Origin: Victivallales bacterium
Lineage (GTDB): Bacteria > Verrucomicrobiota > Lentisphaeria > Victivallales > UBA1829
Length of the DNA stretch: 64,000 nt
Reading direction: 5' to 3'
Assembly (NCBI GenBank): GCA_045589595.1
Contig: JAZNPK010000032.1
Location: 53,475-117,474 of the forward strand
The translations under genes were made by a program, and so were the position numbers. Under the pieces are notes generated by a model. It did no database searches. It had not been told where the DNA came from and was given only the letters and a program-made list of their open reading frames with translations. Positions 48,253 to 48,367 of the stretch are shown one piece after another (within the stretch, counting starts at the first letter, position 1; every line of letters begins with the position of its first letter).

Positions 48253-48367
48253 ACGCCCGCCGGGGCGCGGCTCCCGGGCGTCCACCCGGACGCCCGGTGC
48301 AGTTGCGCTTCGCGCGCAACGGCACAGCGCGGTTTGCACCGCGCGGAGCCGCGCCTCCGGCGGGCGT
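48253..48367 (+). other. GC-rich branched stem-loop element: three hairpins enclosed by a 21-bp closing stem (X2)
   Basis: Closing stem: ACGCCCGCCGGGGCGCGGCTC (48253-48273) pairs with GAGCCGCGCC-t-CCGGCGGGCGT (48346-48367). Inner hairpins:
- CCGGGCGTCC-accc-GGACGCCCGG (48274-48297)
- GTTGCGC..GCGCAAC (48302-48320)
- GCGCGG-tttgca-CCGCGC (48327-48344)

Followed by ATTATTTTT. Shares the AACGGCACAGC linker and TTTG(C)A loop with X1. Confidence 0.6.

Follow-up and report, generated by a model that had tools for sequence, protein, structure and literature searches.

A branched GC-rich palindrome between two convergent genes of a Victivallales bacterium, one of two diverged copies with a possible role in transcription termination

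What is a large, branched and GC-rich palindrome doing between the stop codons of two convergent genes? The element, designated X2, occupies positions 48253 to 48367 on the plus strand of the 64,000-nt stretch of Victivallales bacterium DNA under analysis (the window), and is one of two copies of an element termed X. Upstream of X2 lies a plus-strand gene for a beta-lactamase-fold serine hydrolase (47147..48214; PF00144, E = 1e-59). The convergent gene on the minus strand (48369..49535) encodes a BNR_2 (sialidase-like) protein, for which metagenome assemblies give a call of 356 aa. The initial annotation had set the start of X2 39 nt past the hydrolase stop (ORF end 48214) and its end one base before the BNR stop codon, and both distances are correct. 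It had also claimed a T-run after the element, and the plus strand indeed reads ATTATTTTT at 48368..48376, directly 3' of X2, as would befit the U-tract of a presumed plus-strand terminator. This tract overlaps the BNR stop codon (48369–48371) and the last two BNR codons, which double as the T-run in a very compact convergent arrangement.

X2 is a real, extremely stable four-armed hairpin, 115 nt in length, in which a closing stem and three hairpins are arranged round a four-way junction. The closing stem comprises 22 bp formed by a 5' arm (48253..48274) and a 3' arm (48345..48367), which pair as two blocks of 11 bp (48253–48263/48357–48367 and 48264–48274/48345–48355) with T48356 bulged. The ends of the element read ACGCCCG...CGGGCGT, and the T-run directly adjoins the 3' arm. 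Hairpin 1 (48275..48296) contains 9 bp (48275–48283/48288–48296) and a loop of sequence ACCC. Hairpin 2 (48297..48325) is composed of a 4-bp part (48297–48300/48322–48325) and a 7-bp part (48302–48308/48314–48320), separated by an A48301·G48321 mismatch. A48326, the sole junction nucleotide (junction A), precedes hairpin 3, and the two together span 48326..48344; the hairpin reads GCGCGGT TTGC ACCGCGC and consists of 7 bp (48327–48333/48338–48344) closed by the loop TTGC. In total, 98 of the 115 nucleotides are paired and 17 are unpaired, and the junction is almost free of linkers. The coordinates and general anatomy in the initial annotation stand, except that hairpins 2 and 3, given there as 7 and 6 bp, are 11 and 7 bp long.

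The G+C content of X2 is the highest among the GC islands of the window, in a genome that averages ~53%. With RNA parameters, the plus strand folds with a minimum free energy (MFE) of -105 kcal/mol (z = -10.6), compared with a mean of -65.6 +/- 3.7 kcal/mol for 200 dinucleotide shuffles, none of which was as stable (0/200). The dominant plus-strand structure accounts for 54% of the ensemble. The minus strand reaches -107.2 kcal/mol (z = -10.3) with the same parameters, and the fold computed with DNA parameters reaches -69.5 kcal/mol (z = -11.0). A GC-corrected sliding scan of the 64-kb window with 120-nt segments ranks X2 first for structure.

A fold with z = -11 under DNA parameters, built round a perfect linker-less four-way junction that resembles the geometry of a Holliday junction, is consistent with an action of X as DNA. 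The element would then extrude as a cruciform or four-way junction that serves recombination, replication pausing or the binding of a nucleoid protein, and it would mark or cause rearrangement, in line with a gene order round the BNR gene that is completely different in relatives. We regard this explanation as very unlikely. No recombinase or integrase was found among the nearby genes flanking X2, and the X2 sequence contains no attC-like R''/R' core sites. Integron attC sites (R'' RYYYAAC, R' GTTRRRY) are single imperfect hairpins with extrahelical bases, associated with an integrase or a cassette array, and X2 does not qualify as one. The apparent link to rearrangement dissolved on inspection: X2 had been considered as a rearrangement junction because of a 518-aa gene that neighbors BNR in locus L189, and this protein is unrelated to the 518-aa protein of the window. 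The sole aberrant junction inside X2, at 11069–11210 of contig L009, has a tail that matches nothing else compared; it looks like a misassembly and was treated as such.

The only other copy found, X1, lies on the plus strand at 23083..23256, and the order of helices is the same in both copies, as the initial annotation had noted. It combines the architecture of X2 with an additional outer (CA)n/(TG)n stem and has an MFE of ~-143 kcal/mol (z = -11.7). Its plus-strand fold contains five G·U pairs and its minus-strand fold contains two. X1 begins 20 nt past the stop codon of a gene for a GFO/IDH/MocA oxidoreductase. After the 3' arm of X1 comes GACATTTTTT, with a T-run that starts 2 nt after position 23256. 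Downstream are a TTGACA box for an ankyrin-repeat gene and then that gene, an arrangement consistent with one transcription unit ending and another beginning here.

X1 and X2 are homologous, as had been proposed, with a common architecture and with helices that differ in sequence and remain paired. The homology is limited to the junction core, which comprises the inner closing stem, the base of hairpin 2, junction A and hairpin 3. The inner closing stems (CCGG-CGCAGGATC in X1, CCGGGGCGC-GGCTCC in X2) are identical at ~12 of 15 positions and are distinguished by two compensatory substitutions and by indels on both arms. At the base of hairpin 2, both copies contain GTGYN(N)GTT pairing with AACGGCAC, which in X2 corresponds to GTGC/GCAC and GTT/AAC; the distal tip of this hairpin is variable between the copies and is still paired. 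The exact 11-mer AACGGCACAGC is confined to X1 and X2 within the window. Hairpin 3 follows the pattern GC(CGG)GCGGT-TTG(C)-ACCGC(CCG)GC across the copies, with a 3-bp indel on both arms, such that hairpin 3 and the junction of X2 are homologous to X1 23201–23224, where X1 has three extra base pairs. The sequences of hairpin 1, distal hairpin 2 and the outer closing stem are unrelated between X1 and X2, yet fully paired in each.

These comparisons change the view of the supposed single-stranded motifs. The GTG element and the AACGGCAC / AACGGCACAGC linker had been described as unpaired; instead, they pair together and constitute the base of hairpin 2. Conservation of single-stranded motifs is not observed either, as AACGGCAC carries two SNPs among strains and the true loops vary too. 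When hairpins 2 and 3 are deleted, the closing stem and hairpin 1 form a single continuous long hairpin in both copies, of 31 bp in X2. This continuity fits a nested palindrome, an origin that is unprovable from two copies.

Both copies of X are located 20–39 nt past a plus-strand stop codon, in one orientation, and in each case a T-run follows on the plus strand but not on the minus strand. Intrinsic (Rho-independent) terminators resemble X2 in their GC-rich stem, in the U-rich tract that immediately follows and in their position just past a stop codon: the X2 stem ends at 48367 and ATTATTTTT comes next, and X1 has a like pattern. Our leading interpretation, to which we assign about an even chance of being correct, is that X2, like its diverged counterpart X1, is a copy of a GC-rich nested-palindrome repeat that is restricted to the species and works as a factor-independent terminator and protector of 3' ends. 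Transcription of the hydrolase gene would extend through X2 on the plus strand, making the element the 3' UTR. Folding would begin with the three inner hairpins and so bring together the arms of the 22-bp closing stem, which would form an intrinsic terminator with the directly adjoining AUUAUUUUU. The very stable 3' structure might also shield the hydrolase mRNA from 3' exonucleases.

On the minus strand, the large hairpin is placed 1 nt past the BNR stop codon and the sequence downstream of it reads CUGCCCAUUC / CUGCCCAUUCUCAG, which lacks a U-tract. Because the hairpin is followed by CUGCCCAUUC, BNR termination at X2 would be hairpin-only and probably leaky, and the element would act at best as a weak hairpin-only stop or barrier for this gene. 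X2 shares with bidirectional terminators its location between convergent genes and the capacity to form a hairpin on both strands. However, these terminators display an A-tract, a stem and a T-tract, whereas X2 has a U-tract on one side only. The idea of a bidirectional terminator, raised in the initial annotation, is thus supported for the plus strand, with its U-tract AUUAUUUUU, and not for the minus strand.

A textbook bidirectional intrinsic terminator, AAAAAAACACATCCGG-CAAAATTTTTA-CCGGATGTGTTTTTTT, is present at about 36715–36760, with a symmetric A7-stem-T7 arrangement; the organism therefore uses canonical terminators with A and T tracts. Elsewhere, the convergent genes for a HAD-type hydrolase (+) and an Exo_endo_phos protein (-) are only 6 nt apart (52439–52446). 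Such a gap leaves no room for a terminator, and convergent pairs in this genome are thus not uniformly equipped with a terminator module. The convergent and 3' intergenic gaps of this genome are where structured repeats accumulate, namely X2 and the copies of a second family, Y, described below.

Several features argue against a terminator. The loops of intrinsic terminators have 3–8 nt, whereas the closing stem of X2 encloses a 70-nt insert with three hairpins (48275–48344) and departs in this respect from a simple hairpin. A simple hairpin would serve as well, and termination does not account for the branched form. With two copies, the common orientation and placement could be a coincidence. 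X1 tolerates slippage of the (CA)n tract in its outer stem, as well as a partly disruptive CG>TA change, and X2 varies among strains like other intergenic DNA. X2 is distinguished from an independently evolved terminator hairpin by its homologous copy elsewhere, which makes it part of a repeat family.

The variation among strains was followed in metagenome assemblies, more than 100 blocks of which contain the source species (~99% identical). X2 is intact in all nine assemblies that span the site (L001–L008 and L194), and X1 is intact in the nine that span its own (L171–L178 and L180), in addition to the window itself. No empty X1 or X2 site was found among the spanning assemblies. Seven SNPs were detected in X2. 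Two fall in the loop of hairpin 2; position 48301 is C in most strains, which closes the mismatch, and A in the strain of the window; C48323T, A48324G and C48355T create G·U pairs on the plus strand and C·A mismatches on the minus strand; and T48367C opens the terminal pair. Five of the seven are compatible with the plus-strand fold, against ~43% estimated by chance, a difference that is suggestive and not statistically significant.

The density of segregating sites in X2 (5/115, 4.3%) equals that of the spacer between the BNR and M42 genes (8/185, 4.3%); at third codon positions it is 1–3.4%. Because X2 is as variable as other intergenic DNA, its primary sequence is under no visible constraint. 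The near-perfect helices that persist despite polymorphism at a neutral level may reflect selection on pairing or, alternatively, palindrome correction at the DNA level. In X1, the (CA)n microsatellite on the 5' arm of the outer stem (23092–23104) differs by +2 or -4 nt between strains, and the (TG)n arm shows no change that matches these length shifts. The remaining X1 changes affect the loop of hairpin 1 and that of hairpin 3, including TTTGA -> TTTGTGA in hairpin 3 of one strain, and the CG>TA change in the outer stem mentioned above.

A search for further members was largely negative across Rfam, genomes, metagenomes, viral contigs and relatives, an outcome that the initial annotation had named as evidence against its proposal. 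Rfam 15 yielded no match at gathering score in the whole window. Permissive scans round X2 and X1 returned only sub-threshold fragments, for example the terminator hairpin of the Pseudomonas sRNA P6 at 18.7 bits versus a threshold of 50 bits. ARAGORN predicted no tRNA- or tmRNA-like cloverleaf in the window (0 genes). No further copy of X was found in ~84 kb of the source genome (the window and the 10 kb flanking it on each side), nor were partial copies detected there by short-word BLAST.

We further scanned 185,579 species genomes (596 Gb, one genome per species) with a motif consisting of the exact AACGGCACAGC, a gap of 0–8 nt and GCGGTTTG. The 36 matches are about as many as chance would give, come from assorted phyla and lie mostly in coding or high-GC DNA. 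None of them displays an X-like fold, with the possible exception of one doubtful locus (L043), treated below. The source species is itself missing from these matches, probably because its representative MAG breaks at the X elements or differs in them. The same motif with R allowed at one position, a relaxation that increased the noise, gave at least 120 matches in JGI metagenomes. Among the matches listed, all are chance occurrences in high-GC contigs, and the best MFE is -0.53 kcal/mol per nt, compared with -0.9 for X2. In viral contigs, the strict motif had 0 matches and a looser motif gave chance matches only. BLAST of phage and plasmid collections revealed no match to X.

The relatives of the source species were equally devoid of the element, with no copy of X in ~60 kb of non-redundant sequence from five of them. 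Loci with hydrolase homologues (<=58% identical, in genomes of 42–45% GC) have neither X nor synteny. At the loci of UvrA homologues (88% and 80% identical), synteny stops at uvrA and no X- or Y-like element is found. The BNR orthologues (66% and 59% identical) have no X downstream, and the next gene follows after 12–81 nt. None of the loci from relatives holds an element of comparable structure. A search of the literature on intergenic repeats of Victivallales returned nothing relevant. On present evidence, X is confined to the source species, at approximately one copy per 40 kb.

These results also bear on whether X encodes a dedicated structured RNA, either derived from a 3' UTR or free-standing, with a four-way junction core that binds a protein or a ligand. 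Such an RNA would explain why the junction core is conserved while the tips of the helices vary and still pair, with compensatory substitutions and two-arm indels between X1 and X2. It would also agree with the orientation of both copies along the upstream gene, and with the SNPs that form G·U pairs on the plus strand. Nevertheless, we judge it improbable. Hardly any unpaired nucleotides are conserved, with A48326 the only one in the junction and with loops that vary among strains. The variability of the sites is at the neutral level, and the two strands fold equally well, so that no RNA strand is strongly marked. Structured non-coding RNA families are recognized by homologues across species, covarying helices and conserved unpaired nucleotides, a profile that X does not present: only two copies exist, and no members were found in Rfam, in the 596 Gb of genomes, among the JGI metagenome matches listed or in relatives. 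The initial annotation had likened X1 and X2 to a structured RNA family. The homologous paired helices bear out part of this proposal, whereas two copies cannot establish a family.

A further explanation, which we consider possible but rather doubtful, places X among the miniature mobile DNA elements (MITE, REPIN or PATE type) that are selfish or neutral. The arms of the closing stem would then represent terminal inverted repeats, the hairpins would belong to a single-stranded DNA intermediate of transposition, and any effect on transcription would be incidental. Folding that is equally strong on both strands and with DNA parameters is compatible with such an element, and so are the neutral-level polymorphism of X2 and the absence of X both after the BNR orthologues and from the ~60 kb of the five relatives. 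The continuous hairpin that remains upon removal of hairpins 2 and 3 fits an insertion nested in an existing palindrome. X1 and X2 also often break assemblies. Contigs end or turn chimeric inside X2 in four cases (L009, L010, L192 and L193) and inside X1 in one (L179), in independent metagenome assemblies (MEGAHIT, scaffolded and Logan), from which it follows that the elements break short-read assemblies.

Other observations oppose mobility. Both sites are occupied in every spanning assembly (9/9 for each copy). No target-site duplication is visible at X2, and X1 shows only a weak TTTTCAG similarity, in some strains only. X1 and X2 differ too much for a recent transposition event, and there are only two copies in ~84 kb. 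No transposase or RAYT gene was found among the Pfam-annotated genes of the loci examined. Fixation in all strains, the lack of a target-site duplication and the divergence between X1 and X2 favor the terminator reading, whereas neutral-level polymorphism and the dynamic Y family of the genome favor a mobile element. By origin, X could be either a duplicated terminator module kept by selection on pairing or a non-autonomous mobile palindrome.

X can also be compared with known repeats. In E. coli, REPs stabilize upstream mRNA and assist termination. Known MITEs and nested palindromic repeats include the Correia/NEMIS elements and the PATEs derived from IS200/IS605. These elements resemble X in their inverted terminal arms, intergenic location and strong predicted structure, and in their possible nesting within an older hairpin. 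X differs from them: it shows neither a target-site duplication nor near-identical copies, and no strain was seen with an empty site. REP, BIME and REPIN sequences are described as repetitive extragenic palindromes that are mobilized by RAYT transposases (PMC3116915, PMC3337134). Like X, they are extragenic, palindromic, GC-rich, often located at the 3' ends of genes and restricted to lineages. However, REPs are simple hairpins of 20–40 nt that share a conserved head motif and reach tens to hundreds of near-identical copies per genome, whereas X is branched, measures 115–175 nt, occurs as two diverged copies in ~84 kb and has no recognizable REP-style head motif.

In its presumed mode of action X resembles an intrinsic terminator or a 3' stabilizer of the REP type, and yet it lacks some features of each. 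It is best classified as a new structured extragenic palindromic repeat, restricted to its lineage, with an unusual size and a four-way junction. Should the terminator reading hold, X2 would be a local curiosity, and an uncultured gut member of the Lentisphaeria would use very large GC-rich palindromes with branches to form the 3' ends of some genes. This would help to annotate terminators and to make sense of the contig breaks in these MAGs.

A more far-reaching and, in our estimation, unlikely alternative is that X, and perhaps Y, belong to an undescribed structured class specific to the Lentisphaeria. Its four-way-junction core would be functional, either as a 3'-UTR RNA recognized by a protein or as a hairpin-targeting mobile element that nests in terminators, and compensatory evolution would keep the helices perfect. 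If the conserved junction core proved to define a family of some size, X would matter more, as it would point to a new module for protein–RNA or transposase–DNA recognition in a poorly studied phylum.

The doubtful match of the genome scan is situated at 7030–7290 of locus L043, in a Victivallaceae MAG (JAQUTL010000007.1). This multi-hairpin element contains GCAACGGCACAGCGGCGGTTTGCA, which agrees with the X2 core at 24 of 25 nt. It is closed by GGCGGCG/CGCCGCC, has no 5' partner for hairpin 2 and adopts a different, weaker fold. It is bracketed by inverted copies of a ~24-nt repeat, ~230 nt apart (AATGGCCAAGTAATGGTCAAGTAA / TTACTTGACCATTACTTGACCATT). It could be distantly related to X or could itself be MITE-like.

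The source genome also contains a second, more abundant family of multi-hairpin repeats, designated Y, whose gain, loss and truncation between strains speak for the mobile reading of X. Five copies were located in the window, at 9330–9450 (+), 20570–20720 (+), 53300–53450 (-), 58930–59075 (+) and 59150–59295 (+). The consensus reads ..CCAGCGG-loop-CCGCTGG..CAAGGGCA(C/A)AGCCCTTGACG..GCAGAAAAC-variable hairpin-GTTTTCTGCC(A/G)TAGTCAA-variable hairpin-TTGACGG. The core motif is found five times in 64 kb, where 0.06 occurrences are expected, and compensatory changes affect 10 of the 43 consensus pairs. Y has no match in Rfam and was not found in the loci from relatives.

Y shares with X the conserved bases of the stems, variable tips that remain paired, intergenic location, the lack of an Rfam match and the short string GGCACAGCC. 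By contrast, Y is a linear string of four to five hairpins with no closing stem, moderate GC content and no T-run after it. Other differences from X are its five copies in 64 kb, which face either way with respect to genes, and its gain and loss between strains.

The copy between the Maf and Exo_endo_phos genes (Y2; 53255–53454 in the window, 16109–16308 in L001–L008) is missing altogether from L004 and carries an internal deletion in L007; short direct repeats (CATTTCTGCC, GTCAATGC) flank the deletions. Around 20.5 kb, the Y region differs in length between strains (L171–L173). These differences at the two sites indicate that Y elements are gained and lost within the species. Finally, the region 58880–59300 is a tandem duplication with a period of ~221 bp, whose unit comprises a hairpin (GTGCCATTAAGTAAGCGATAGCGTTAC(G/A)CAATGGCAC) and a Y element. 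L167 and L168 apparently have a single match to the Y motif in this region, which suggests copy-number variation.
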